Shown in pieces: positions 21,671 through 62,416 of a stretch of 64,000 nt of DNA. This DNA comes from an uncultured Chlamydiae bacterium (GTDB lineage Bacteria > Chlamydiota > Chlamydiia > Chlamydiales > SM23-39): positions 928,001 through 992,000 of the forward strand of contig CAWHDP010000002.1 in NCBI GenBank assembly GCA_963828125.1, read 5' to 3'. Both the position numbers and the translations under genes were made by a program. The notes under the pieces were generated by a model that saw nothing but the letters and a program-made list of their open reading frames with translations, was not told the DNA's origin and did not search any database. Position 1 is the first letter of the stretch; each line of letters starts with the position of its first letter.

Positions 21671-22038
21671 GGGGGTGTCAAGGTTTCGACTTAGGAATAA
21701 AGCATAGGTGGCATGTAGAGGATAATCGGTGGGCCTCTTTAATCATCCGATTAAAACACAAACGACGAAGAAACATTCCCGTTGGCAGCCTAAGGCTTAA
21801 CCGCCTTAGTTGCCCGGTAGCCTGAGATCAGATCAAGAGTTTCAGATGTCTACCGTCATACATCTTGAAGTGAACCCTGGCCCTTTGGGACTATCTAGGT
21901 AGGAGTTCGAGATAGAGAAGGTCTAGTTGGCCCCAAGCGGAGAACCTTTCGGCAAGGTCAACTTATTTTAAGGTACTAAGCATGTAGTCATCTTTGTAGA
22001 GTTTGCTAAGGACGAGAGTTCGATTCTCTCCACCTCCA
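21671..22038 (+). ncRNA. ssrA: tmRNA; tag ending ...DEETFPLAA* (stop 21791-21793)
   Basis: 5' GGGGGTG pairs with 3' CACCTCC-A including G3-U; GGTTTCGAC; T-arm GAGAGTTCGATTCTCTC; TATAAT near 21600. Confidence 0.96.
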
Positions 22039-22205
22039 AAATTCAGATTAAACCAAATCAAATAACACTAAGAATACCAAGGACTTAAAGGGGAACCGAT
22101 AAGTCCTTTTTCTTTTCATCTAGGCCACTTTTGCCCAGTCTAGTGCGTAAAATTTGCGTAATTTAAACAGAGGGACTAGCCTAGTCTGGCCAATAGACAA
22201 AAACC

Positions 22206-32042: not shown

Positions 32043-32278
32043 ATGCCCTTCTCCATAAAAGGCAAGAGTGTAGAAAAAACTGGATTAAATGACAACAAAG
32101 AGATCAACAGTCTCTCGACCAATCACACTTAACATACTGAATATCAAACTTAAAAGATTTTATTCCTGAGTAAATTACGCATTTGTTACGCACTTTAGAA
32201 ATGTTTTTACACTCAACGCGGACACCCAAGCCATTCTTTTAATGGCCTATTAATGCCTGCACCTGCTATACATGGAGT

Positions 32279-32343
32279 CATAAAGCATCCCACTTAGCAC
32301 TGCTAGGTGGCCGCCACGGGTTCCGTATCCGTGGTTTTTTTTT
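32279..32343 (+). ncRNA. Candidate structured leader RNA upstream of NYN gene
   Basis: Hairpin ccacttagc/gctaggtgg (32290-32310), then gccacggg/tccgtggt stem and T9. Confidence 0.55.
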
Positions 32344-32354
32344 GGAGGGAAACA

Positions 32355-33113
32355 GTGGAGTACGAACGAATCATCTGTTTTGTCGACGGGTTCAATATGT
32401 ACCACGCCTTGAAGAACCTCCAATTACCGCACCTAAAATGGCTAGATTTACAGCTGCTATTCAGCCGACTGACCCGCTCAAAGTCCCAGGTGATAACACA
32501 GATCCTCTTCTTTTCGGCCTACCCTACCTGGAAACCAGACTCATACCACAGACATAAACTCTACATTAAGGCTCTATCATCTCATGGGGTTACCCCAATC
32601 TTGGGGCAATTTAAAAATAAGCCCAAAAAATGCTTGAAATGCAAAGCGGAATGGATAAGCCACGAAGAAAAAGAAACGGATGTTAATCTGGCGCTCGCGA
32701 TGCTGGATTTAGCTTATAAGGATCGTTACGACCACGCCTTCCTCTTATCAAGAGACTCCGACCTCGCCCCCGCTGTACGCAAAGTCAAACAAAATTTCCC
32801 CGACAAGAAAATAACAGTCTTTTCCCCATACAACTACCGCCACAGCTCAGAATTAATGCAAGCATGTGACGGACATAAGACAATAAATTTCAGGCACATA
32901 TCTACCTCCTTATTCCCCGAACAAGTATATGATGCGGGAGGAAATCTTGTTGTTATTCGCCCCCCTGAATACGCGCCCCCTAATAAACTCGCCCAAAAAC
33001 CTGATGAAGCAACACCGCTCGAACAAATAATTGCCGACAAGATGGAGACATCCTTCTTAAGTGAAGTTCCTGACAAAGACTCCGACAGGCAGAGAGGGGA
33101 GCCCCTCAGATAA
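32355..33113 (+). CDS. NYN (LabA/DUF88) domain ribonuclease with CxxC insert
   Basis: FVDGFNMYH; CLKC; EEKETDVNL; SRDSDLAP; GTG start after GGAGG. Confidence 0.9.
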   Translation: MEYERIICFVDGFNMYHALKNLQLPHLKWLDLQLLFSRLTRSKSQVITQILFFSAYPTWKPDSYHRHKLYIKALSSHGVTPILGQFKNKPKKCLKCKAEWISHEEKETDVNLALAMLDLAYKDRYDHAFLLSRDSDLAPAVRKVKQNFPDKKITVFSPYNYRHSSELMQACDGHKTINFRHISTSLFPEQVYDAGGNLVVIRPPEYAPPNKLAQKPDEATPLEQIIADKMETSFLSEVPDKDSDRQRGEPLR

Positions 33114-33163
33114 CGGGGCTTATATGAGGAGTTACCCCCTCAGATAACGGCTTATATGAGGGG
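33102..33163. repeat. Two tandem dyad sites CCTCAGATAA-N4/N6-TTATATGAGG
   Basis: 33102-33131 and 33136-33163. Confidence 0.8.
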
Positions 33164-33239
33164 CTAATGGTTTTATACCCCCCAGTTAAAAGTCCTGCAA
33201 TCGGCGCAGCCAACAAGCTATTGGCTTTATTCCCATTTT

Positions 33240-34546: not shown

Positions 34547-35089
34547 TTATATTTCTAGCTCCAATCCTTGACTGACAGCTATCTCGCTTAAAGCCTCTGT
34601 GTATGTTTCTCTACATATGGGATGATCATCATCTGCACCAGTGTAATATTCCAAAACACCATCAATAGATGAAATGTAACCAATCTTGTCGGAAGGAAGT
34701 TTGTTCCTATCTGGGCCATAAATAAATATTCTTATTTCTACATTTTTAGAAGTAAATGGATATTCATGAAGGTAAGGTCTAACATCTTGGTTATTATTGA
34801 CATCAGAAATATATTCATTAATGGCATAAATTAGCAATTCCCTTGCCTGCTCTAAATTGACTTCATGGTAATAATTGAAACTCATGGCTAGCATTTCTAT
34901 TTCATGCATCATTTGCCCACCAGTTCCGATTAAGATCAGATTTTTTTTCTCTTTTAATTTTTTTGCAGTCTCTTGAGTGATTTGATTAACAATTGTTTCA
35001 TCCTCTGACAATTTACACGTCATAGAGTTACAGCCAAAAGCTAAGAAAATTATTAATAAAACTAGAGATAAATTAAAAAAACACTTCAT
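34547..35089 (-). CDS. Lipoprotein, candidate immunity protein of the RHS toxin
   Basis: Lipobox LAFGC; ATGA overlap with the RHS stop. Confidence 0.75.
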   Translation of the reverse strand: MKCFFNLSLVLLIIFLAFGCNSMTCKLSEDETIVNQITQETAKKLKEKKNLILIGTGGQMMHEIEMLAMSFNYYHEVNLEQARELLIYAINEYISDVNNNQDVRPYLHEYPFTSKNVEIRIFIYGPDRNKLPSDKIGYISSIDGVLEYYTGADDDHPICRETYTEALSEIAVSQGLELEI

Positions 35090-38000
35090 TGCACTCCTCC
35101 ATATTTTTTTATATAGTCTTTAGTATGACGCTTGATTGATTCTGCAAAAGTGGGGCTTAAAAAATCATGATCAAAAAAATTGGCGTCTGGATGGGGATCT
35201 AATATGATCAACTCATCTCGATATCTTATCTTCCCAATAATATCAAAGTGAGTGACAAAATCATGCCTACTCATATAGTTATAGGATCGGAAACATAACT
35301 TTCTAGGTACAATCTCAGCAGGAGCAATCGCTAAAACTATAATGCGTTGCCGAACCTCCTCTGGAGACGTTAGTAGTGCATTTTTGACATGAGTAGCTCC
35401 ATGACTATGGCAGTACTGAAGAAATTTTGCTTCAGGTCTACTTATTGCAAAAAAATCATGCCATCTATCTTTTATTTTCTGAGTTGGAGGGGTCATAATT
35501 CCAATACGCCCTAGTCCAGAATCAATTAGATCTCCAATGACGCTGTTTGATGCATTGTATACCCCATAAACTGTCGCCCCTCCTGCATACCCACTTAGGT
35601 ACCTTGCTTTTGCCATTGACTCTTCTTTAGTATTTGCAATGCCATTGATAAAGCCGATAGCGCCATTTGGCAAATTAAATGAGCCAACTTGAAAAGACTC
35701 TGAATGGGTAAGATTGTGATTATAACAATACGCAGAAAGCCAATTGCCAGCCCTAACAGTTTGGCTGTAACCAGTAAGATGATCTAGCCCTGCAATAACT
35801 GTAGGTTTTGTCACTTGATAAGCATAAGACGCAAATCGACCATCTGGATCAAAGTAATTAACTGGATCCCCATTAGCGTAAGCATATAGATCTAGGCACA
35901 TCGGGTAAGACACCGGATCTTGGCTTAAGAATTGACCGCTTCTAGAATCATAGTATCTATCCCCCATCCAGATGAAACCTGTTGGATCTTGGGCCTTACT
36001 ATGCCAATTCAAAGACTGGGCATAGGAAATCAGATCTGAAGAAACAGAAGGATTTATCTCAAGAGGTCCATAGAAGGAAGGAGACTTTTCGCTATAGAGG
36101 GTTCCTTGGTGAGAAACAACTCCTGTCAGCTGCCTCAATGCATTGTGCATTAGGGTAACGGATGCTCCTGTTTCATCACTGATCGCATCGCAAGCATCCG
36201 GCCCATAAATTTTCCAGAAAGTTTTCCCTCCGATTTGTATCCCGATCTCTTGGAATTCTTCCTCAGGATCGTAGAGAGAGTTGGTGATTAAAGTTTGCTC
36301 TCCTGATTTTGCGTATCGCGTTTGAAGTCTTCTGCCAAAAGCATCATAAGCAACCTCCCATGAATAAGAAGGATCAGTAATTTTGACTAACCTGCCCCAT
36401 GGATCCCAGGATAACTGTTTTTGGCCATGAGTAATAACCTCACCCATTAAATTGTAACCAGTTGAAAGAGGTATCTTTTCGAATACTGAAGCAAGAATTC
36501 TGCCAAAGTCATCTAAGCTGTTTTGAGGAACATACCATCCTGGAGCGGCTGTTCGAACGCCGGTGCCTGCAGAATCAAAGTCAAAATCATATTTTTCAGA
36601 TCCAGTCGATCTTAAATATCCCCGTTCATTGTAAGAGAAACTTTGTTCTTTTCCCGGAGCTATGTAGGTGCAGATTTTCCCTGAAGGATACCAATCAAGC
36701 TGTTCTTGATAGGATCCTTCGGGTAGACGTGTCAGAACGGTTTCCGGTAGCCCAGATGTGTTATAATTGATTATGGTAGAGTTCAGCCTACTATTTTTGC
36801 TCTTCAGAGCTCCGCTGAGTTCATATGAATAGGACACCCCTACATGCTGAGTTGTAACCTGCACAAGTTGGTTGTTTTGATAGATAAAGTCACGGACATG
36901 GCTTCCAATCTGCAAAGAACGGCCATTAGCAGTCCATTTTTGCTTGGTCTGCTGAATCAATTGGGAATTCAAATAGACCGACTCAAGAGCCAAGTTACCA
37001 TCCGCATCATAAGAGCGTTCTACGAGCGAATTTTCGCTTTGCGATCCATATACCCAGCTAGATAGCCATGAAGAAGTTATGTCCGTAGTTTGATTGACTG
37101 TTGCAAGAAACCCTCTTGGCTCATATGTATAGATACGCTTACCACCTCCAACGCTATCTTGGAAGATCTTTCCATGCGAATCGTAAAGATACATGTGGGT
37201 TCTTTGCATAGGGTCTGTAGCTTCCGTAAGATAACCACCTTCATAAGAGAAAGTCCATCGCTCAGAAGAACCTCTTGAAGAGACTAACTCTTCCCATTTC
37301 TTTCTATGCATTGAATCATAGGAAGCTTTCCAGACATTGCCGTTAGGTAGATGGTACTCGGCTAGATTAGAGTCTAGATCATAAACAAATTCAACAGCAC
37401 TTCGATCAGGGAGTTCTCGCCTTTCTAAACGTCCTAATCCATCGAACTCTTGACGAGTTACCCTGCCATCTCCATCAATTGAGGTGATGCAATTGCCACA
37501 AGCATCATATTCATAACTAACGGTAATGTCTCCTTTTTCAACTCTTACAGGAAGCCCAAGAGCATTTCTCCAGGTAATCGTTCTTTCCTCTCCTTCAATG
37601 ACCTCTTCCTTATCGTTTTCAGGATCAAAATGGAATTGGGAAACAGCGATAAGAGTTCCTCTAGAATCATTGACCTCTGACTTAATAGCCTTTCCACCAG
37701 CGTACTGAGTTGTGGTAGTCTCCCCGCTCGGAAGACGGCAAACGACAACGTCATCGTGATAATTCCAACTTGTGTGCTTACCACTAGGGCTTATCTCGGT
37801 CTTAGGACGATTAAGGCCATCATAAGTTTTTTCTGAAGTATAGCCCGCTGCATCAGTAAGCTTGATGAGATTGCCTCTTGGGTCAAATTCGCTGATTTCA
37901 GAAATTTTCGTTGTCAGATGAGTTCTTATTACTCGGTGATGAGCATCGTCGTATTTGATTTCCCAGGCAACATCATTCTTTGTTTCTAGAATTGGCCGTC

Positions 38001-41000
38001 CCAAGAAATCGTACACAACCTTATTCTTAGTCCCGTCCGGATAAATCTCCTCTTTGAGAAGCCCATTTGTTGTGTAATGACGCGTGACTTGTCCTCCAGA
38101 TGGGGACGTAATGGTTTCAACGAGGCCTCCAGCTTCGTATGAAAAATGAGTTGTATGACCTTCTTTGGTTTCGTCTGTAATCCGGCCCAAAGGATCGTAG
38201 TCTCTATAGGTGACATATCCTCTAGGATCTGTTTCCTCGATGAGATACCCACAGAGGTTATATTCATAAAGGGTATAGGCAATCGAACGACTTGGGGTAA
38301 GCGACTGTCTTTTAGCTTTAACGAGCCCTGAAGCGTGATAATCAAAATAGACGACATTCTCAGAATTAGCCGTCTGTTTCCAGATAGGGGCGTTGTTCAG
38401 ATCATATCCGATATAGGTTGCAGAAAGAAGTTCTCCAGAAGGAGAGAATATTTTTGACTCACTCTGATTTCCCATGAGGTCATAGTCGCCCTCACGAGTT
38501 CCATCAACAGAAACAACCTCTATGCACTGGCCTTGGGTGTTATAGGCATAAGTGGTGACAACATCGGGGTCTTCTGTCCCCGTTAGTTCGATTTTTTCTC
38601 TAGGGAATCCTCGATCATTATAATGCCAAATAATGACCGCCCCAGAACGGTCTTCTTTTTCCAACTGTCCTAAAGAATTGTAGTCAAAATCAAGGTAGGA
38701 AGTCAGAGTATTTCCGCTATATTTCTCGATTCTTTTGGGTAAATAAGGGAAGGTAGGGTCGTAAGTCGTGAGTGTTCTTTGTCCATAGACTTCTTCTTCA
38801 ATACAGAGATTGCGCTCATTATAGGCGAGTTTTTTCTTAATCTCTGAGTCCCCATTTCCCGTGAGATCTTCACCTTTTAGCGTGATAAGTTCAGGATTTC
38901 CGCGATTGTCGTAGAGATAAGAGGTTGTGAGCCCTCGTTTATCCGTTGTGGACTTTAGGCTTCGGATAGCTCCGCCCTTTTGATTCCATTCAACGACCTG
39001 CTCTGTTTCGGGATCGAACCATGATTTTTTATCTATGAACCAAGCTTGAAGAGTAGTAAATCCTAAAGGATCAGTTATTTTATAAATCTGCTTGTCATGA
39101 ATTTGATAGGTTGTTTTTTCTCCTTTCGCGTCTGTGACGATCGTTTTCCCATTGGCATATTCGAATGTGGCGGTTCGGACCATTTGTTGTCTATAACCCA
39201 TGGGAGATCTTTGTTCTTTGATCTTCCCCTCATCGTTATAGACGTTTTCTAGGACCTTTCCGTGAGGTTTTGTCTCTCGAATGACCCGATGGTTCCGGTC
39301 ATATGTATAACTGATTTCAGCTGTATTAGGGAGGGTGACTTTAACGAGATCTCCTTGTGAATCATAATCATAGGAGATACGTCTGCCATCTTTGGCATAG
39401 ATTTCAGAGATATTGCCTTCATGATTGTAGTGGACACCGCAGAAATCCCCATTGGAACTTTCGATACGAGATAAGCGATCATCTTTATAAGAGAAAGAAA
39501 GAGTATTCCCTCTAACATCTACCCAATGTTGCAGAAGGCCATCTTTATAGGATCGTTTTGATCCATCCGCTCCATATAAGACATCGTTTTCGATGTAGGA
39601 ATGGAAAGGGCTAGCCGAGCTGCCTATCCCGTGCTGATTAAAATTGTTGAGCTCTGGGTTTTCTTCTGGAAAAACTTCCCATCGATCGGTTTGTCGATTG
39701 TAGCTATAAACGATCACAGTCCCATCTAATTCAGCAGCAAAGCGTTTACCATCTTGGTCTACAAGGAACGGATTTAAGCTGAGCTTCCATCCGCAACCAA
39801 GGTCTCCAATAAGGGGGTTTTGGCTGTTATAGTTACGGCGAATCGTTAGAGGGAGGGGTCCTGGAAGAACCAGATCGATTTCATCAATATAGAACGCCCC
39901 TGACACAATATCAACTGGATCTGCCACATAGTTCCACCCATCTTTAAAGCCTGCTCTTACATCAGAAATCCAATCTCTGTTCCCTGGTGTAGATTTTTCA
40001 ATGATGGGGAGGGTACGAGTTGGCGTATCGGAGAAATTAGGCTGAGTGGGAACTTGGAGTGCATAGCCATTCATATAGCTACTAGATGTAGGAACAAGCT
40101 CCCAGTTTCTAATCGCCCAGGGAGATAGATAATGGTTGGGAAGTGGGGTCCCCAGCCCTCCATTGGTTACGATGTCGTTGATGGAAATCAGGGCATACCA
40201 TGCATGGGGACTTGTGATGATGGTTCCCATTTCTTTACGCGTTCCATCCAAACTGTTTACCAATCCAGGAGTCATGTAAGCATAAGTCCAGCTGCTCCAT
40301 GGCTGATTCGGATCCATAAGACTTTGCAATATGCTCCATTGCCATGGCGAGACAGTTTTTAAATCTGAAAGGTTAAAGTCTTTTAAGTTAGAGAAATATT
40401 GGCTTTGAGCAGATTCTGGGTTTTTATTGGCGGCTTCAAAGCTAGCGGGAGTAAGAGTCAGAAATCCCTGGCCTTCTAGTCCCTGCTTTTGTTGTTCAAG
40501 GTGAGCCAATTGCAACAGTTTCACTGTAGAAACGGCATAATCGTCTTTAAAGACTTCTCGCAGAATCTGGTGTTCATTCGAAGAACCGTCGATTAAAGAA
40601 AGTGCCTCGAAACCAGTCCTAGCTGTATGCATCTCCTGGTGCCAGACTGAGGGGGCAGCAAGTGGCACAGGGCCTACATGACACAAGAACATGTCCACTT
40701 GAGGAAGCACAAGATCTTCTTCACCCCTAAAAGAGCCTTTCGACAAATCTGGAGAGAGTTTAGCAAGGCCAAACCCAAATGGCACTGTAGGATTGACCTT
40801 ATGCAGCGCGGCGAGAATATTGGTCGATCTACTGCATTTTTCGAAATATGACGCCCCTACGAAAGACAAAAGAGCTAACAGCTTCTTCTTTTCATCTTTT
40901 TCAACTTTAAATTTTTCATAACATTGCGATGCAACCTTAGGGCTATCGCTGCCAAAGTGAGAGCAAAGGGCTGCACTTGTTCCCTTATTGATAGAGTACG

Positions 41001-43542
41001 TTTGTTTAGAAGAAAGGGCATGAGTCCCTAGCAGATATTCCACGAAGACAGCAATATCAATCATTTTATCTGAAGAGTCTAGCTTAAGTGAAGGAAGGGA
41101 TCTGCCTCCCAGTTCGGCGAAAAGAGTTTGAGTATTTCCATTGGAATCAAACCGAACAAAAGACATCCCTGTGCCAAGCAGAGCCACAGGTAATGTACGA
41201 GTGATCAATTTTTGAGGATTTTGCTTGGAGTAAATATCGACCTTCATCCAGGCATACGCGCCGGGAATAGCATCTAAGGAATTATAGATCTGAGGCTGAG
41301 ACTGAACAGTAGGATGAGGGAAATCTGCCCATGAGGAAAATTGCTTTTTAACTTGGGTTTGATGAATCCCAACATCGCTTAACGCTAACCCTTGCTTTCT
41401 TAAATTCTCTTCCACAAAACGGACAAACAGCACTCCAGCAGTATCATCTCCATCAGGACCGATATGCTTCAAGATTTCTTGGTCACCTTTTAGATATTGC
41501 AAGATCCAACGATCAGCAGTCGCATATTTTTCCGGTAAAAAGCTATAAAGGTCATGCCCCTCTTGAACTTGTATGTCTTTCATCCAAGGGAAAAGGGAGA
41601 CCCATTCTTTACCATTAAAGAATAAAACCCAGGGATACTTAAGTCGAGCTTCTTGGTTATCTTCTGGGAGTTTTGTCAGAAGCATGCGCTCAACAAACTC
41701 TTTAGGAAGAGAGCAGAAATCCCCGAGCGCGTATACGGTTTGAAAGCCACTTTTACGCAAAAGATAAGCAAGCAGCTGGCATTGCTCCCAAGCAGATCCT
41801 TGTTTTTCAAGGAAGGTTATCGATGGATTTCTGTGAATACTAAGAGGATAAATGACTCCATTTTCTTGATGAAGAAAAGGGTCTACAAGAGCAATCTCGT
41901 TTTGTACAAAGCTAGCAAGCGCTAAAGGATCTTGTCTATGCTCTTCGATAAATGGGTCGAGCACGGGATAAACGGCTGAAAATTCTAAAGCAGAAAACTG
42001 TTTGTCTGCCCCTTTCAAAGCTTCTTCCAAGCTAGGCAAGGGAGAAGAGTCTATGGGTTTGTTAGGCTTTACTGAGGCTGGTTTTCTCAAAATTTCAAGT
42101 TGCCATGGCGGAGGGGGCAAGAATTGGCTCACATAGAGAGTAGCCTCTTGGCCGAGCGAAATGGAAAACTGGTAGCGTAAATCCGTGCTCTTTTGCGAGA
42201 CAATAAGCGAAAACTGGTTTACTGGATCGGCAGCAAAACTTAGACGCAGCTCTAAACCAAAATCCGATTGCAATTTTGTATCTGGAATGAAGACCATTCC
42301 ATTCTTAAGATATTCTTCCCAACCATTGGTATTTTTAAAAGGGAGGGCAATTTTTTCTGTATGGACTACTTGTCCATTTTCAAGAACTTTGACAATGAGC
42401 TCAGGCTCGGAAGTGTGGCTTTGGATTAAAAATCGATAAAATTGATCTGTATAAAGACAAAAGTCCCCTTTCTTTTGCCCTGTTTGCCCATCCAATGGCA
42501 CCACTCTAGGAAGAGGTTCATTTTTAACTGCTTCAGGCAAGTAAAGATCGGGATTTAAAAGGAAATCACTTTTGAAAAATAGCTCTCTTCTTTCTTTTTC
42601 CTGGACTTCGAATCCTTCCTTAGTGAGAAGCGGTTTAACTTCGCTTAAGCGACTGTTATCAGCTTCTTTCTCAAAAGCAGCAAGAAACTCTTTTAGTTGC
42701 GCATGTTCCTCTTTGAGCGCAGAAACTTCTTCACTGGTGTCGCCATCAAGTAGTTGTTCTAATAGGGAAAAGGCATGTTTTTGCAAATCATAGCAACTTC
42801 GTTTTAATCCTTTCTCTGTCAAAAGTTGGCAGTCCAATTTGAGGGCTGCTATTTTTTCTTTGCAGGTAGCCCTGTTAGCCGCTGCCGTAGACGGCCATTC
42901 AAGAGCTTCGCTTTTGTATTTCTCAGCCCTCCCTTGATAATCTGCTACCTGACGTCTTAAGGCTGCCTTGTCCTCTTCTTGAGGGTAAGGGTTGATAAGA
43001 GATAGAGCTTGATTTGCAAGAGATGAAGCCTCTTCATAGAGTTTTGCTGCTTCATTGAGGACTAAAACAACCTCATCGACATTATTAAATCCTCTTTCAC
43101 AGCCTCTATCTTTGTTTTCGGCTGTTGCAGTCTTTTCTAAACTTGTATTATAAAGGGCCGTACCAGAGATATTTGACTCAACCCTTCTGATGTCAATTTG
43201 CAGTTGATTAATCTCTGCATTAAGCCCCTGTTTTTCTTTCTCGCATCGACTTTTTAAATCCACTCTCCACTGTTTTTTGCGATCGTCTTTTTTCTTACTG
43301 GCAATATCATTTAGGATGGCATCGCAGTGCCCCACGGCTCTTTGGCAACATGCGAGCGATTCCCTAAGAAGCTGAAGTCCTGCTTGAGTATAAGGTTTTT
43401 TCCGAAATTGCTGGATCAGTTCAGTATGTCGATTCCATTCAGGGAGAATTTTGTGAAAGATATTCGTGCATTCTTCTTGGTTAAGACCATACATCAAGGT
43501 GGGGAGAAGAAAGATAATGAGAAAAAAGCGCTGCCATTTCAT
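35086..43542 (-). CDS. Giant RHS/YD-repeat polymorphic toxin (signal peptide, transglutaminase-like, DUF6531-like, RHS core, DUF687/alpha-beta-hydrolase-like tip)
   Basis: ADPVDIVSGAF; many YD repeats; RYYD..SGQFLSQDP...DPVNYFDPDGR; tip FINGIAN...CHSHGA. Confidence 0.92.
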   Translation of the reverse strand: MKWQRFFLIIFLLPTLMYGLNQEECTNIFHKILPEWNRHTELIQQFRKKPYTQAGLQLLRESLACCQRAVGHCDAILNDIASKKKDDRKKQWRVDLKSRCEKEKQGLNAEINQLQIDIRRVESNISGTALYNTSLEKTATAENKDRGCERGFNNVDEVVLVLNEAAKLYEEASSLANQALSLINPYPQEEDKAALRRQVADYQGRAEKYKSEALEWPSTAAANRATCKEKIAALKLDCQLLTEKGLKRSCYDLQKHAFSLLEQLLDGDTSEEVSALKEEHAQLKEFLAAFEKEADNSRLSEVKPLLTKEGFEVQEKERRELFFKSDFLLNPDLYLPEAVKNEPLPRVVPLDGQTGQKKGDFCLYTDQFYRFLIQSHTSEPELIVKVLENGQVVHTEKIALPFKNTNGWEEYLKNGMVFIPDTKLQSDFGLELRLSFAADPVNQFSLIVSQKSTDLRYQFSISLGQEATLYVSQFLPPPPWQLEILRKPASVKPNKPIDSSPLPSLEEALKGADKQFSALEFSAVYPVLDPFIEEHRQDPLALASFVQNEIALVDPFLHQENGVIYPLSIHRNPSITFLEKQGSAWEQCQLLAYLLRKSGFQTVYALGDFCSLPKEFVERMLLTKLPEDNQEARLKYPWVLFFNGKEWVSLFPWMKDIQVQEGHDLYSFLPEKYATADRWILQYLKGDQEILKHIGPDGDDTAGVLFVRFVEENLRKQGLALSDVGIHQTQVKKQFSSWADFPHPTVQSQPQIYNSLDAIPGAYAWMKVDIYSKQNPQKLITRTLPVALLGTGMSFVRFDSNGNTQTLFAELGGRSLPSLKLDSSDKMIDIAVFVEYLLGTHALSSKQTYSINKGTSAALCSHFGSDSPKVASQCYEKFKVEKDEKKKLLALLSFVGASYFEKCSRSTNILAALHKVNPTVPFGFGLAKLSPDLSKGSFRGEEDLVLPQVDMFLCHVGPVPLAAPSVWHQEMHTARTGFEALSLIDGSSNEHQILREVFKDDYAVSTVKLLQLAHLEQQKQGLEGQGFLTLTPASFEAANKNPESAQSQYFSNLKDFNLSDLKTVSPWQWSILQSLMDPNQPWSSWTYAYMTPGLVNSLDGTRKEMGTIITSPHAWYALISINDIVTNGGLGTPLPNHYLSPWAIRNWELVPTSSSYMNGYALQVPTQPNFSDTPTRTLPIIEKSTPGNRDWISDVRAGFKDGWNYVADPVDIVSGAFYIDEIDLVLPGPLPLTIRRNYNSQNPLIGDLGCGWKLSLNPFLVDQDGKRFAAELDGTVIVYSYNRQTDRWEVFPEENPELNNFNQHGIGSSASPFHSYIENDVLYGADGSKRSYKDGLLQHWVDVRGNTLSFSYKDDRLSRIESSNGDFCGVHYNHEGNISEIYAKDGRRISYDYDSQGDLVKVTLPNTAEISYTYDRNHRVIRETKPHGKVLENVYNDEGKIKEQRSPMGYRQQMVRTATFEYANGKTIVTDAKGEKTTYQIHDKQIYKITDPLGFTTLQAWFIDKKSWFDPETEQVVEWNQKGGAIRSLKSTTDKRGLTTSYLYDNRGNPELITLKGEDLTGNGDSEIKKKLAYNERNLCIEEEVYGQRTLTTYDPTFPYLPKRIEKYSGNTLTSYLDFDYNSLGQLEKEDRSGAVIIWHYNDRGFPREKIELTGTEDPDVVTTYAYNTQGQCIEVVSVDGTREGDYDLMGNQSESKIFSPSGELLSATYIGYDLNNAPIWKQTANSENVVYFDYHASGLVKAKRQSLTPSRSIAYTLYEYNLCGYLIEETDPRGYVTYRDYDPLGRITDETKEGHTTHFSYEAGGLVETITSPSGGQVTRHYTTNGLLKEEIYPDGTKNKVVYDFLGRPILETKNDVAWEIKYDDAHHRVIRTHLTTKISEISEFDPRGNLIKLTDAAGYTSEKTYDGLNRPKTEISPSGKHTSWNYHDDVVVCRLPSGETTTTQYAGGKAIKSEVNDSRGTLIAVSQFHFDPENDKEEVIEGEERTITWRNALGLPVRVEKGDITVSYEYDACGNCITSIDGDGRVTRQEFDGLGRLERRELPDRSAVEFVYDLDSNLAEYHLPNGNVWKASYDSMHRKKWEELVSSRGSSERWTFSYEGGYLTEATDPMQRTHMYLYDSHGKIFQDSVGGGKRIYTYEPRGFLATVNQTTDITSSWLSSWVYGSQSENSLVERSYDADGNLALESVYLNSQLIQQTKQKWTANGRSLQIGSHVRDFIYQNNQLVQVTTQHVGVSYSYELSGALKSKNSRLNSTIINYNTSGLPETVLTRLPEGSYQEQLDWYPSGKICTYIAPGKEQSFSYNERGYLRSTGSEKYDFDFDSAGTGVRTAAPGWYVPQNSLDDFGRILASVFEKIPLSTGYNLMGEVITHGQKQLSWDPWGRLVKITDPSYSWEVAYDAFGRRLQTRYAKSGEQTLITNSLYDPEEEFQEIGIQIGGKTFWKIYGPDACDAISDETGASVTLMHNALRQLTGVVSHQGTLYSEKSPSFYGPLEINPSVSSDLISYAQSLNWHSKAQDPTGFIWMGDRYYDSRSGQFLSQDPVSYPMCLDLYAYANGDPVNYFDPDGRFASYAYQVTKPTVIAGLDHLTGYSQTVRAGNWLSAYCYNHNLTHSESFQVGSFNLPNGAIGFINGIANTKEESMAKARYLSGYAGGATVYGVYNASNSVIGDLIDSGLGRIGIMTPPTQKIKDRWHDFFAISRPEAKFLQYCHSHGATHVKNALLTSPEEVRQRIIVLAIAPAEIVPRKLCFRSYNYMSRHDFVTHFDIIGKIRYRDELIILDPHPDANFFDHDFLSPTFAESIKRHTKDYIKKYGGVQ

Positions 43543-48567: not shown

Positions 48568-49926
48568 TTAATCGGCGCCTCCGTGGACCAAACGAATGAG
48601 AGCTTCTTTTTGATTGGCGTGTGCCAGGGATGCTGCGGCATATAGAGGTCTTGAATCAAGTTTATTGATGATAGAGTAGTTAAGAGAAGAAAAGCGGATA
48701 GCAGAATTTGACTTAGGGTGAGTCTCTAGGAAAATATGAAGGCTTCTCAACGTGTTGCCGTGACCACTTTTAACTTCGATAGGAACAATTTGATCCCCCC
48801 TTTGAATCAGATAGTCGATCTCTGCAGCGCTATTTTTTTCTTTTCTTTTCCAAAAATAGATTTCTGCTTTGTTGTCTGGGCTTGCATAGCAGATCAATTC
48901 CTGGCCAATGAATCCTTCAACCATTTCACCTCGGTTTTCAAATGCCTCTAGGGGATGTAAAAACCAATCAGACACATCAGAGCCGAGAATCGCTTGGCAA
49001 AGACCGATATCGAGATAGATAATCTTGAAAGTGTCAAAATCAACCTCCGCGCCAATAGGAATTCCTTGGCCAGAAGAGTGGCGGATCGAATGAATGATGT
49101 TTGCCCGCTCAATCAATTCTAATGCAGGGGCCAATTCCCGTTTTCGATATTCTCCATGAATTTCTCGATAGGAAAAATCCTTGCCCACAAGGTGAGGAAT
49201 TTGTCGAAATAGTTGCTCCAGGTATTTTACCTGTGCTTTTCGAGCATATTTTTCAAAATCTTGGCGGTAAGTTGCTGCAATCTGTTGCAGTACATTCAGT
49301 GCTAATGTTGGATCTTTTGTCTGAATCCATCTTGCCACAGCTTCAGGCATTCCTCCAATCGAGAGGTATTCGCCGAGGAGGTCCAAGATTTTTAGATGAA
49401 TCGCCTCCTCCATAGGAACTCCAATGGGATGATCCAGAATTTCTTTTGCGATCAAGTGATGACCAATGGCCACAAGAAATTCCAAGAAAGAAAATGGATA
49501 CATGTAAAACATAGAGATGCGCCCTACAGGAACTCCGACCTTGGCAATCGCAAATTCTAGAAGCGATCCCGCCGCAATCAGGTGAAGATTTGGCATCTCT
49601 TCATAAAAATAGCGGAGAGCTAAAATAGCGCGTGGAGCTTCTTGTACTTCGTCAAAGAAAAGAAGTGTTTCTCCAGGGATAATCGGAGTTTTCGCAAGGA
49701 GAGATAGGGATAAAATTAACCTCTCCGGGGCGAGGTCTTTCTCAAAAATAGAGGCAGCCCCCTCCAATTTTTCAAAATTGATTTCAACGAAAGATTTGAA
49801 CTGTCCCCCCAATCTTCGAACGGCATATGTTTTCCCCACCTGTCTTGCCCCACGTAATAAAAGAGGTTTGCGGAAAGGGTCGGTTTTCCATCGGTCTAGG
49901 TGGAAGTCTATGATTCTCTTAAACAT
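48568..49926 (-). CDS. AAA_14 ATPase + DUF4143 (PD-(D/E)xK-like) protein
   Basis: GARQVGKT; FFDEVQ; GGMPE; AEIDYL..IVPIEVKSG; start MFKR. Confidence 0.92.
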   Translation of the reverse strand: MFKRIIDFHLDRWKTDPFRKPLLLRGARQVGKTYAVRRLGGQFKSFVEINFEKLEGAASIFEKDLAPERLILSLSLLAKTPIIPGETLLFFDEVQEAPRAILALRYFYEEMPNLHLIAAGSLLEFAIAKVGVPVGRISMFYMYPFSFLEFLVAIGHHLIAKEILDHPIGVPMEEAIHLKILDLLGEYLSIGGMPEAVARWIQTKDPTLALNVLQQIAATYRQDFEKYARKAQVKYLEQLFRQIPHLVGKDFSYREIHGEYRKRELAPALELIERANIIHSIRHSSGQGIPIGAEVDFDTFKIIYLDIGLCQAILGSDVSDWFLHPLEAFENRGEMVEGFIGQELICYASPDNKAEIYFWKRKEKNSAAEIDYLIQRGDQIVPIEVKSGHGNTLRSLHIFLETHPKSNSAIRFSSLNYSIINKLDSRPLYAAASLAHANQKEALIRLVHGGAD

Positions 49927-50015
49927 GGCTAAATTCCAAGGTAAAAACGGATCTGTTCTGGTCGTATTCCAACCCAAATATGTATGATTTTTGGCTAAAT
50001 TCCAAGGTAAAAACG
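49926..50015. promoter_or_regulatory. 24-bp direct repeat bracketing the ATPase promoter region
   Basis: TGGCTAAATTCCAAGGTAAAAACG at 49926-49949 and 49992-50015. Confidence 0.7.
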
Positions 50016-50026
50016 ACTTTTAAGTA

Positions 50027-50070
50027 TACTGCGGCCACCCCAAAAGTGTGAATTTGGGGTGGCCGCAGTA
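50027..50070. repeat. 44-bp palindromic element, copy 2
   Basis: Same as 47043-47086; flanked by TA on both sides. Confidence 0.9.
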
Positions 50071-50074
50071 TAGC

Positions 50075-50368
50075 TCCACGAAGACTCAGCCCTATTGCTG
50101 GGCTAAGGTCAGAATCATTCGAGATGACAACAGAGACAATCTTGAGCGCCTTAATGTAGGTCTTTTGTGCTTGCAGAACTGGAGCTGCTACGTGGTCAGC
50201 ATATGCTGTAAAATAAAATACTTCATCGAGCTGTTCTGTAGACGTGTTAATGAAAATCGCAGCAAGAGCTTTAACATTAAGCCATTTTAACTCTGGGCGA
50301 CGAAGACTTGCAATTGCATGGTAAAGATTGAATCCATCGATAAGGGCAATAGTGCTATGAAGTGACAC
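50075..50368 (-). pseudogene. NYN-domain gene with internal deletion
   Basis: IDGFNLYHA...LKWLN...ALKIVS fused directly to ISNDSDLSPAI. Confidence 0.8.
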
Positions 50369-50378
50369 GAGAACCCCA

Positions 50379-50486
50379 GACAAAACAGACCACGGGTTTA
50401 TGGCCCGTGGCTTTCTCATGCGGTCCCCAAGGGATACTCATGAGGGACGATAAGGTTATCGTACTCGGCTATAGAATTTTTTGCAA
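50379..50486 (-). promoter_or_regulatory. Sigma70-type promoter and structured leader of the NYN pseudogene
   Basis: TTGCAA-17-TACGAT; leader ends gccacggg-ccataaa-cccgtggt-ctgttttgt. Confidence 0.6.
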
Positions 50487-53000: not shown

Positions 53001-53543
53001 TCAGGATGGTTTTAGCCAGAGGTGCTGTTCTGTAAAGCCCTCGGCTAAGGCTTTTTGAAACCACTGTTTTGTGAAATGAGGTTCGAGTTTTTTCATTTTA
53101 GGGGAAAGTCCCTGTAGATTATTTAGCAAGTCTTCCACAGATAGGCCTCTTAAGCCAAGACTTAGAATTCCTAAAGCTTTAATAGCTGCTCGATCTGCTG
53201 TTGTGAAAAAAAGGTGTTGATATTCTTTCGATATCAGCATGGCAAACGCTTCAAGTTCTCCGGCATCCAGGGCGGAGATGAAATCATTAGATAGCCTTTT
53301 AGTCAGCTTGGCAAAGTCGGCAATTTCTGCATCAATACGGGTGATCTTGCCTTGATGGACCCAGTTGGATATTAAAAAAGGTTGCTTGCCCTTGTCAGAT
53401 GAAAAAAAGAACAGCTCATCTTCAATAACTGTTCCTGGTAAAAAAATCCGATATGCATTGCACAGGCGATCCCAATAGCCTTTCTCGTGAGCATCTATTA
53501 CTACTACAGTATCAACAAGTAAGTCCTTTAATTTCTTTGTCAT
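53001..53543 (-). CDS. PIN-like protein (putative toxin)
   Basis: LLVDTVVVID; LDAGELEA; TADRAA. Confidence 0.75.
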   Translation of the reverse strand: MTKKLKDLLVDTVVVIDAHEKGYWDRLCNAYRIFLPGTVIEDELFFFSSDKGKQPFLISNWVHQGKITRIDAEIADFAKLTKRLSNDFISALDAGELEAFAMLISKEYQHLFFTTADRAAIKALGILSLGLRGLSVEDLLNNLQGLSPKMKKLEPHFTKQWFQKALAEGFTEQHLWLKPS

Positions 53544-54675
53544 TTGTCAGACACAATCCTTTTTCCGCTAGATATTGATTCAGGTCTCGGAGCTTGACGC
53601 TAAGTATTTGGGCTAGCCTGGCTTTAGATAATCTCCCTTTTTCATAAGCTAAGTATGCCAATCGGATAAAGCGATTGCCTAGAGGAGGCGCAGATGCAAA
53701 TGCCTGTTTGAATACATCGTGATCCAGTTGTGAAAATTCAGGATCTCCGAGAGCTTGATCAACTGATTTAGAGGAGATAAATTTTAAATATCGTAATCTC
53801 AATAGCATGGCCTGTTTAGATACTTGGTATTTACCTGCTAAAGCAACTATGAATGAGTAGGTAAGTTTGTTCCCCCGAACATCTAAATCGATCATTTGTT
53901 GTGGCATGAGCAATGCTGCAGCAAAGGCGTCGGCTAGCTTTTCGTTTTTGTGAAATAATTCTTCGCTGGACTGTATTTGTGAAATTAATGACTCGTTCCA
54001 TGTGATAAGATGGAAAAGCTCGTGAGCTACATTAAATGTTTGCCTCCAGCGAGCCTCTTTTTCATTAATCATAACCACAGACCCATTGTCTTCTCGATAA
54101 CAGGCTGCTGAACCATCTTCTAAAGGGCGGCTAATCAATAGCACGCCATATTCTTCTTCCAAATATTTTATTAGCAATGCTCCTGGATAATCGCCTAAAT
54201 GAAACTCTCTGTGAATTTTTTCTGCTAGTTGGTTCGCCCAGTCGATGCTGGCAGAAGAAATATCGCAACATTCTCTGGGAAGAGTTTTCATTGGTGAGGA
54301 TGGAATGGCTACCAATCTTTCAACAAGGCAATAATTTTGATAATGTTGAATGAGATTGTGTTCTTCTTTTAGTGCGATGGTTGAATCGATTGCCTTTTTG
54401 CGCCAAAGTATGGTGGGATGCTTGGAGCATTCTTTTGGTTCTTTGGAATAAAAAGACTCTGGAGAAACATTCAAGATGGTTGCGAGCTTTAGCAGCTCGT
54501 GCATTTTAATATTTTGTTCTCCGCTTTCAATTGCTACTATAGAGGCATGACTTTTCCAGCCCATTAACTCAGCTAGGTCTTGTTGTGATAAACCGCGTTG
54601 TTCGCGGATCTCACGAATCCTTCTAGCGATATCCTGGTTTCTCATAGACTGATTCCCTTGATGTAGGTCAGACAT
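53512..54675 (-). CDS. XRE HTH + ImmA/IrrE metallopeptidase
   Basis: IREQRGLSQQDLA; RQTFNVAHELFH; EKLADAFAAALLMP. Confidence 0.92.
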   Translation of the reverse strand: MSDLHQGNQSMRNQDIARRIREIREQRGLSQQDLAELMGWKSHASIVAIESGEQNIKMHELLKLATILNVSPESFYSKEPKECSKHPTILWRKKAIDSTIALKEEHNLIQHYQNYCLVERLVAIPSSPMKTLPRECCDISSASIDWANQLAEKIHREFHLGDYPGALLIKYLEEEYGVLLISRPLEDGSAACYREDNGSVVMINEKEARWRQTFNVAHELFHLITWNESLISQIQSSEELFHKNEKLADAFAAALLMPQQMIDLDVRGNKLTYSFIVALAGKYQVSKQAMLLRLRYLKFISSKSVDQALGDPEFSQLDHDVFKQAFASAPPLGNRFIRLAYLAYEKGRLSKARLAQILSVKLRDLNQYLAEKGLCLTNDKEIKGLTC

Positions 54676-54913: not shown

Positions 54914-55454
54914 TTGAGTTCACTAGACGACATTCGAGGAACGGTCAGATCTATGCGCGCGGTCAAAACGGAAAACCTGATCAAATACCTGAATGTGAAA
55001 ATTCAGGGGTGGGTCAATTATTACCGTCACTGCGTGGCAAAAGCGACGTTTAACTACTTAGACAACAGCATATTCTGGATAGTTTGGAAGTGGGCCAAAA
55101 GGCGACATCAGAACAGGGGGGCATCCTGGATCCGGAAAAGGTATTACACTACCTTGGGACTCAGAAAGTGGTGCTTCTACTCGAAGATGAAAGCGGGAAA
55201 ACAAGAATCCCGTATTCTTCTCACTCTGGCACAACACACAAAGATCGAAAGACACGTGAAGGTCAGAGCGGAAGCTTCGCCGTATGATCCCGATTTTAAG
55301 GAATATTTCATAAAACGGGAAAGAGAAAAGATGAGAAAAAAAAATGATAGCCGGGTGATATGAGCCTTAAGAGAGGCTTGAGCCGTATGATGGGAAACTA
55401 TCACGTACGGTTCTTAGAGGAGGAAACTAGGGCAACCTAGTTTCCTTACTCAAC
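54914..55454 (+). mobile_element. 5'-truncated group II intron (maturase X domain, DV, DVI)
   Basis: LNVKIQGWVNYYRH...WKWAKRRH...SPYDPDF; GAGCCGTATGATGGGAAACTATCACGTACGGTTC; ends CTTACTCAAC. Confidence 0.9.
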
Positions 55455-60998: not shown

Positions 60999-61250
60999 AA
61001 TTGCAAGTCTGCGTCGCCCAGAGTTAAAATGGCTTAATGTTAAAGCTCTTGCTGCGATTTTCATTTTACAGCATATGCTGACCACGTAGCAGCTCCAGTT
61101 CTGCAAGCACAAAAGGCGCTCAAAATTGTCTTTGTAAACCCCATTTTAGGATTCTTCAAAAAAAAAGACAGAAAATGCCCCAGCTGCAGCCATAAATGGA
61201 CCAGTCACGAAGAAAAAGAGACTGATGTAAATATTGCTTCTTACTTATCA
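60999..61250 (+). pseudogene. Third NYN-domain remnant
   Basis: Near-identical inverted match to ~50130-50315 with deletions; continues ...KCPSCSHKWTSHEEKETDVNIA. Confidence 0.8.
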
Positions 61251-61270: not shown

Positions 61271-62416
61271 ATGACAGCTACTGCAGTAAGGGTTCGTCCC
61301 ACAATAACTTCTACGCCGTTTTGCGATACAAGTTGTAAAGGCATACGGGTGTTTGGCCAATTCTTGGGACGAATCCTCTACGCTTTGGGCCTACTGATCG
61401 CCTCCGTAGCATACCGAATTTTCAGTAGAGATATTGCTTGTACATACTTTTCGATGGCAAGCACCCAGTTTAATCGAGGAAGCAATGCACTCGTAACATA
61501 CTGTCAGTTTGGAGAGAAGCTTATTGATTTTTCGTATAACGGGTGCGTGATCGCCCCCTCTTCAGACACAGAACAAAATGCTCTTCGGGCCCGCTATGGC
61601 TCGAATGCGATCGATCAGTGGTTGCGGATTGGGACCAAAGAGATCCCTCTCAAGCCGGAAAAGTTAAAGCGCGTGGAAACAGGAATTTGTTTAGGGATGA
61701 CTTTGGACTTTTTGAAGCAATATCTCCAACAGATGCAAGCGGGTGTGTCGCCGATGGAAGCGATCCGCGAAATCAGTTCGCGGTATGTAACTGGAGCCCC
61801 CGATCAAGCTCAACTCGCGCAAATTTTCTACTCTGCCTTAGATTCAACCCATGTGATCGAAAAGGAATGGGCTCATTTGGATGCGTCCATGGAAGGGCAG
61901 CGAACAGATACTCTTCGGTGGTTTGATCAGCAACGAGAGCAAATCCGTGCTCTTTCAAGAGAACAAATCCTTGAAAGACTAACCCAGGTACAGACCCAAT
62001 GCAACGAACGGTTGAACAACTTTCGTGTCGATGCTCTTTCCAAGAAGATAGTAGCCATAGCTCGGATTGAAACGCAGCGTGACGAAATCGCGAGCAATCA
62101 GTTCGGTCTTCAAATGGGATCTGCACGGATCTATGCCCATGAAGAAATATCTGCGGAATACGATGTTGAGTTCAGTCAGTTTCTTGAGGAGCTTCCAAAC
62201 GGTTGTTATGCGGGAGGATTCCGGGCTAAGGGATGCGCACATGCTGTCACCTTAATTAAATCATCGGATAGCCAATATTTTCTCTTTGATCCGAATTTTG
62301 GGACGCTGGTTTTTAAGAAAAATGAAATTGCAGAGAAATTATGGAACATTGGAAAGTCTTTCTATCTCAAAAATGGGTTATGCAGCCTCAGTTTTTCCTC
62401 TTGTAGGTTACAGTAA
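61271..62416 (+). CDS. YopT/C58-like cysteine protease, candidate T3SS effector
   Basis: GICLGM (Cys); AHAVTL (His); FLFDPNFG (Asp); no Sec signal. Confidence 0.8.
   Translation: MTATAVRVRPTITSTPFCDTSCKGIRVFGQFLGRILYALGLLIASVAYRIFSRDIACTYFSMASTQFNRGSNALVTYCQFGEKLIDFSYNGCVIAPSSDTEQNALRARYGSNAIDQWLRIGTKEIPLKPEKLKRVETGICLGMTLDFLKQYLQQMQAGVSPMEAIREISSRYVTGAPDQAQLAQIFYSALDSTHVIEKEWAHLDASMEGQRTDTLRWFDQQREQIRALSREQILERLTQVQTQCNERLNNFRVDALSKKIVAIARIETQRDEIASNQFGLQMGSARIYAHEEISAEYDVEFSQFLEELPNGCYAGGFRAKGCAHAVTLIKSSDSQYFLFDPNFGTLVFKKNEIAEKLWNIGKSFYLKNGLCSLSFSSCRLQ

Follow-up and report, generated by a model that had tools for sequence, protein, structure and literature searches.

The window, by which we mean the whole 64,000-nt stretch of chlamydial DNA that was analysed, carries an island with a tmRNA gene (21671-22041) and adjoining integrase, transposases, and RhuM, RHS, AAA_14/DUF4143 and HTH-IrrE genes. 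The island surrounds an intact gene for a ribonuclease of the NYN/PIN fold, preceded by a short element with two hairpins, and holds two decayed copies of the same gene. The relevant features are:

32264..32272, + strand: extended -10-like site, a weak match without a clear -35, seen by eye
32280..32343, + strand: candidate small RNA of ~64 nt, consisting of single-stranded 5' tail, hairpin 1, 2-nt linker, hairpin 2 and U-run
32285..32289, + strand: conserved unpaired C-rich tail abutting hairpin 1 on its 5' side (family consensus UCAUC)
32290..32310, + strand: hairpin 1, 8-9 bp, with C-G pairs at the opening and a variable loop
32313..32335, + strand: hairpin 2, separated from hairpin 1 by the 2-nt linker
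32313..32343, + strand: hairpin 2 with U-run, an intrinsic terminator (terminator scan) and second half of the repeat unit
32335..32343, + strand: T9 run, the first T of which also serves as final base of the hairpin 2 stem
32344..32347, + strand: ribosome binding site GGAG (from sequence)
32355..33113, + strand: NYN/PIN-fold ribonuclease of the HEC-09 family with CxxC beta-hairpin insertion (GTG start, 252 aa)
49919..50368, - strand: decayed second NYN gene with GTG at 50368; an internal deletion removes the CxxC and the EEKETD block (translation, tblastn)
50380..50452, - strand: second RNA copy with long hairpin 1 and degenerate U-run (24.3 bits, E 0.00087 with the model R1 described below); aligns with locus L038
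50486-50458, - strand: promoter of the second RNA copy (-35/17 nt/-10)
about 61000..61250, + strand: third NYN fragment, frameshifted, partly near-identical to the second copy and without a leader (tblastn, translation)

The GTG codon at 32355 follows the T9 run by 11 nt, and the two-hairpin leader of ~65 nt that an earlier note on this DNA had described before the intact gene is present in all its parts. The predicted fold of the 64-nt element has an energy of -26.4 kcal/mol (z -4.83), and none of 200 shuffled sequences was equally stable. The locus has one repeat unit. A terminator between RNA and gene, as in type III toxin-antitoxin (TA) loci, is present here and throughout the family. No plus-strand promoter was found before the gene by a consensus promoter scan; the spacing of the -10-like site from hairpin 1 is that seen for -10 boxes in relatives, 12-16 nt in most cases. 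No RNA data set was listed among the sequencing runs searched, which speaks neither for nor against the element.

The intact ORF matches Pfam NYN (PF01936, E 1.2e-17), and its residues 4-203 align with positions 2-199 of the 203 positions of PADLOC HEC-09 (PDLC04163, E 2.1e-54), making it a full-length member of that family with a non-conserved tail beyond residue ~213. Residues D11, N14, E104, E105, D109, D134, D136 and the cysteines C93/C96 are present, and none of them varies among the 26 relatives aligned. An AlphaFold model (pLDDT 94) submitted to Foldseek returned VPA0982 (2qip) and the MARF1 NYN domain, while a sequence search of solved structures gave nothing significant, NCBIfam gave nothing above cut-off, and the Pfam search yielded no Abi_2 match. 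Pfam, PADLOC and Foldseek thus gave NYN only, and no homology to the Kid/MazF-like ToxN, CptN or TenpN was encountered, in agreement with the view that this fold stands outside the ToxIN, CptIN and TenpIN toxins. The fold and acidic active site are shared with LabA/DUF88-like NYN.COG1432, VPA0982 (2qip), the MARF1 NYN and the CRISPR-associated NYN of Bacteroides fragilis, for which the available texts report no RNA partner gene; the subfamily of the window differs from these by an extra beta-hairpin insertion, often with CxxC.

The closest relatives of the protein are in Chlamydiota assemblies. The family was found in 44 of 400 scored Chlamydiota genomes and on 312 plasmid records, and a profile search returned 823 protein clusters (50% identity) at E < 1e-30 and 3921 at E < 1e-10, the presence of the RNA being known only for the loci that were fetched. 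In the available text of PMC5499597 the NYN group is listed as of unknown function, and that of 10.1101/2024.04.08.588522 describes a characterised bacterial NYN as a Mn-dependent, sequence-nonspecific RNase that trims crRNA. HEC-09 was found embedded in Hma defence systems by Payne et al. (10.1101/2024.01.29.577857), whose main text describes it as a single-gene candidate and uses 'ncRNA' and 'non-coding' 0 times. According to the available part of the same paper, the single HEC-09 tested, with ~150 bp of upstream DNA where possible, gave no protection from any phage used, and the authors note no toxicity of the cloned gene.

Of 132 distinct homologues from Chlamydiota, metagenome, viral and plasmid loci, 124 were found by a fold-based parser to be preceded by two adjacent hairpins and a U-run, compared with 8 of 150 control ORFs taken from the same loci. 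Fourteen of the 124 parses were dropped as mis-parses before profiling, leaving 110 sequences; the true element was later located in 9 of the 14 by R1, a search model of the RNA with 64 training sequences. Among the first nine loci, an intact leader precedes the best-matching gene in seven; L006 has a degenerate leader at that gene and an intact one before a second copy, and L009 has a broken gene without leader.

The consensus of the 110 sequences consists of the 5' tail UCAUC, a stem opening with C-G pairs, a hairpin 1 of mostly 20-22 nt, a linker of 0-3 nt, hairpin 2 and the U-run. The tail motif is short and of low information content, with C in 92% at position -1 from hairpin 1, U in 72% at -2 and C in 67% at -4. 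Where a -10 box was found, its end most commonly lies 12-16 nt ahead of hairpin 1; in 27 of the sequences the search gave none. When the sequences were aligned without use of structure, two-sided changes were seen at 9 of 17 pairs in 33 Chlamydiota sequences, 5 of them among the 9 pairs of hairpin 2, and in 64 diverse sequences at 7 of the 8 pairs of hairpin 1, which covaries between proteins of only 35-50% identity. Slid controls gave far lower values; kinship among the sequences inflates the shuffle test. Covariation of hairpin 2 is seen within Chlamydiota only, because its register is bad in diverse alignments (51% paired in A5). Conservation of the stem upstream of homologues had been proposed in the earlier note as a check on the element, and on both counts, parsing and covariation of the two stems, the outcome was positive.

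R1 matched 72 of 83 and 43 of 53 sources at E < 0.01, figures in which training sequences match by construction; the RNA of the window, itself a training sequence, scored 54.3 bits. The model gave no score for RNAs convergent with the gene from downstream or for most RNAs of a CxxC-less sister group, which were matched by layout only. No Rfam family, the abiF motif RF03085 included, matched the leader, whether at the gathering cut-off or with E as high as 10. A pseudoknot, by kissing loops or between tail and loop, had been considered from the loops of the Chlamydiota RNAs and was rejected: neither form left a covariation signal in the 110 sequences (best tail-loop signal 0.2), where the top covarying pairs are nested stem pairs or their neighbours. 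No conserved protein partner was found among 98 neighbouring ORFs. L087, an intact homologue that is one of the few lacking an RNA close by, has at the place of the leader (upstream of 2007) what by eye resembles the 3' end of a group II intron. In a distant NYN subfamily on gammaproteobacterial plasmids (L153, L155, L156, L157, L163) the first hairpin, ~100 nt upstream of the gene, is longer, contains a conserved inner motif and is followed by a terminator; this is probably another RNA class.

The unit of tail, hairpin, linker and hairpin also occurs in tandem. Eight loci (L066, L072, L116, L126, L127, L131, L132, L135) have three units, separated by spacers of 6-11 nt that end in the same tail; the array of L116, judged by eye, is less regular. 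At L131 one promoter (TTGACA-17-GATAAT) stands before the three units and the terminator is found only at the last hairpin, and in tandem arrays of 2-5 units generally the U-run follows the last unit only. Two units are present at L093 and in more distant plasmid or viral relatives (L150/L161, L151, L191). An E. coli plasmid relative has a promoter, four or five single-hairpin repeats, a terminator and the NYN gene, the repeat number differing (4 vs 5) between two strains. Tandem Repeats Finder did not detect the array of L131, and because units differ in sequence while keeping their shape, sequence-based tandem-repeat searches miss such structural arrays. On a quick tree of 118 proteins the eight three-unit loci form one clade (SH-aLRT 95), which argues for one origin of these arrays; the two units of L093 were acquired independently of that clade according to the same tree. 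Directly 5' of the array of L066, on the same strand, lies a bona fide Rfam abiF antitoxin RNA (L066:1766-1803; 39.7 bits, gathering 37), and no Abi_2 gene was recognised in the 3-kb locus. The island of L066 adjoins a 6S RNA and a RelE/HigA-like pair. On ColE1-like plasmids of 3.5-4.6 kb (L150, L151, L154, L161, L041) the NYN cassette is seemingly the main cargo.

The RNA is not confined to the sense leader. At L074 it points away from the gene and scores 51.4 bits with R1 as a sequence outside the training set; its start follows a site at the first codon of NYN that resembles a promoter, noticed by eye and not by the scan. The same orientation away from NYN was also found at L141, L143, L158 (23 bits), L177 and L247, and by eye at L042 and L159, whereas at L162 and L188 the RNA is downstream of the gene on the opposite strand (convergent) and has no R1 score. 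The divergent form appears at three places on the quick tree, at least two of which are forced by well-supported branches. An automatic classifier was applied to 171 representatives (80% identity); it placed the RNA in sense in 122, divergent in 9 (3 of which look false) and downstream in 2, and reported no element in 38, many of the 38 showing one by eye; a single sense unit was called in 115 of the 171. For L196-L231, placement was assessed by this classifier only.

The relation between RNA and gene was also followed from the RNA side by searching 151 Chlamydiota genomes with R1, matches of 31.9 bits or more being regarded as strong. Of 34 matches, 27 were strong, and these precede 14 intact NYN genes, one gene cut by a contig end, three broken genes, three stubs of 10-39 codons and, in five cases, no NYN gene; the remaining one is a cassette of promoter and RNA that has been duplicated. 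In 11 of the 27, then, NYN is broken, a stub or absent, and every near-full-length NYN in the 151 genomes has an RNA match just upstream. The seven weak matches (23.8-26 bits) comprise the second copy of the window and, as far as examined, mostly plain terminators. One genome (G098) contains seven RNA copies (at the L035, L321, L333, L336, L339 and L341 loci) and two intact NYN genes; at L035 the whole cassette is duplicated. The orphan RNAs may be harmless relics of deletions.

Gene decay is also seen in the window itself, where the two decayed NYN copies that the earlier note had counted are both recovered, the one by its internal deletion and the other by its frameshift. The divergent homologue at 50368(-) indeed repeats the layout of the first locus, with the same stem in the RNA and a different loop, the differences being the longer hairpin 1 and degenerate U-run; the 3' part of this gene is no longer homologous. 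At the break of this copy lies a perfect 20-bp inverted repeat (50025-50072), one arm of which recurs in the genome (L312; G000:C2 near 1227100), which suggests the end of a mobile element.

To judge from these comparisons of sequence, the locus is likely to be an RNA-antitoxin module of type III-like design with a PIN/NYN protein as candidate toxin. A constitutive promoter would give rise to a short RNA ending mostly at hairpin 2, with occasional read-through supplying the NYN mRNA; the layout suggests that the RNA would be in excess. The folded RNA would bind the NYN protein, its two adjacent stems providing the shape and its C-rich single-stranded tail being placed in or near the acidic active site. 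From array loci, transcripts would carry several units, which are probably cut apart in the tail-bearing spacers of 6-11 nt. By analogy, a stop of host transcription or a phage factor that removes the RNA could set the nuclease free to degrade RNA, and the freed NYN might then bring about abortive infection or maintain the mobile element.

For the leader itself the earlier note had offered two roles, a small RNA that binds or limits the nuclease and an autoregulatory attenuator. Covariation, tandem arrays, divergent and downstream RNAs, and RNAs kept before broken or missing NYN genes give strong comparative support to the former, a separate protein-binding RNA, and weaken the latter. That the protein would do no more than bind or cut its own mRNA leader, tuning read-through or mRNA stability while the short RNA has no role in trans, is quite unlikely: one sense unit right before the start codon is indeed the rule (115/171) and hairpin 2 is a textbook terminator, but the element is outside the mRNA leader at the divergent and downstream loci, the divergent form stands at three places of the tree, and whole cassettes are duplicated (L035). 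RCd22, the AbiF RNA, neutralises the Abi_2 HEPN toxin in trans and also acts in cis (10.1101/2025.04.15.648962, available text), so that action in cis may coexist with action in trans.

The same linkage and structural data, together with the rarity of RNA loss from intact genes and the absence of reported toxicity for cloned HEC-09 in the available text of Payne et al., would suit an RNA that is a required cofactor or scaffold of an active NYN ribonucleoprotein or sensor. This we regard as unlikely, since the RNA has no guide-like variable segment of constant length, stems and loops vary, and terminator-limited expression and gene decay with retention of the RNA fit a harmful protein better. 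Still further from the data is the notion that a mobile gene merely brought along its promoter, a chance hairpin and a terminator serving as insulation. Mobile genes often have terminators in front of them, some of the weak R1 matches (23.8-26 bits) are plain terminators, and 8 of 150 control ORFs also gave a parse; against this, hairpin 1 covaries at 35-50% protein identity, the tail and linker length are kept, and units are multiplied without U-runs and re-oriented. The absence of a functional RNA is thereby largely refuted and in our estimation highly improbable. The strongest point against the toxin-antitoxin reading is the negative phage test of one HEC-09 in the available part of 10.1101/2024.01.29.577857; the sequence-nonspecific, crRNA-trimming NYN of 10.1101/2024.04.08.588522 also counts against it. 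Activity of an RNA-antitoxin module would depend on the RNA-to-protein ratio, and single-gene defence screens may for this reason misjudge HEC-09.

In its logic the NYN module is closest to AbiF/RCd22, and it is a member neither of AbiF nor of ToxIN/CptIN/TenpIN. With AbiF/RCd22 (10.1101/2025.04.15.648962, as far as its available text goes) it shares a promoter, a short hairpin-type RNA with at least one motif, a terminator, read-through into a nuclease gene and residence on mobile elements. The toxin candidate here is PIN/NYN and not Abi_2, the RNA has no RF03085 match, its unit consists of two adjacent hairpins and a 5' tail, and divergent and downstream placements occur. The series of promoter, tandem RNA units, terminator and ribonuclease that characterises ToxIN/CptIN/TenpIN (PMC3401426, available text) recurs in full at the array loci and in the E. 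coli plasmid relative, whereas most NYN loci, that of the window included, have one RNA unit, as against 2-5 in relatives. A further difference lies in the fold, ToxN being Kid/MazF-like with a pseudoknot antitoxin (PMC3401426, in the same text) and the present protein an NYN without pseudoknot signal in its RNA.

A literature search returned no paper that pairs bacterial NYN/HEC-09 with an RNA; supplements and the AbiF literature may hold an earlier mention. NYN is mentioned 0 times in the main texts of PMC5737381 and 10.64898/2026.09.15.751765, and the searched supplement files of PMC8040213 contain five NYN rows, all in LabA-OST-HTH or YacP neighbourhoods. The pairing of NYN and small RNA is real, conserved and widespread, and it appears to be undescribed.

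To our knowledge, few toxin folds are known to be restrained by bound RNA. A PIN/NYN example, if confirmed, would add a new toxin fold and a new, pseudoknot-free RNA architecture, spread across small E. coli plasmids, prophages and environmental Chlamydiota, and would give the very common uncharacterised 'NYN domain-containing protein' a testable function. We put forward more tentatively that there is a very large PIN/NYN RNA-antitoxin family in which the nuclease itself cuts the arrays at UCAUC-type spacers and stays bound to each unit. If true, AbiF would be joined by another independent example of a nuclease processing its own RNA array, a step thought to precede RNA-guided systems (for the link between AbiF and Cas13 see 10.1101/2025.04.15.648962, available text).

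Several other features of the window were noted. Two tandem palindromic repeats (33102-33166) overlap the NYN stop codon and were considered as a second antitoxin; this was rejected, as they are missing at all 9 homologous loci and present in 2 of 401 genomes. They also have five viral matches. In the one other Chlamydiota genome of the 401, similar palindromes are clustered, with a tyrosine recombinase-like gene on one side and an unrelated gene on the other, and no NYN is among the listed ORFs; because of these unrelated flanks we take the repeats to be REP-like and outside the module. Further along, the minus strand encodes an RHS-repeat protein of 2818 aa (35086-43542) with a small ORF downstream, a possible immunity gene, and, at 53001-54675, an HTH-IrrE (Peptidase_M78) gene with a 180-aa ORF behind it that matches no Pfam family, a layout as in protease-controlled toxin modules. 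A plus-strand ORF at 61271-62416 has a weak C-terminal match to Peptidase_C58 (E 5.9e-6), and a group II intron remnant with maturase domain and domain V/VI lies at 54914-55454.
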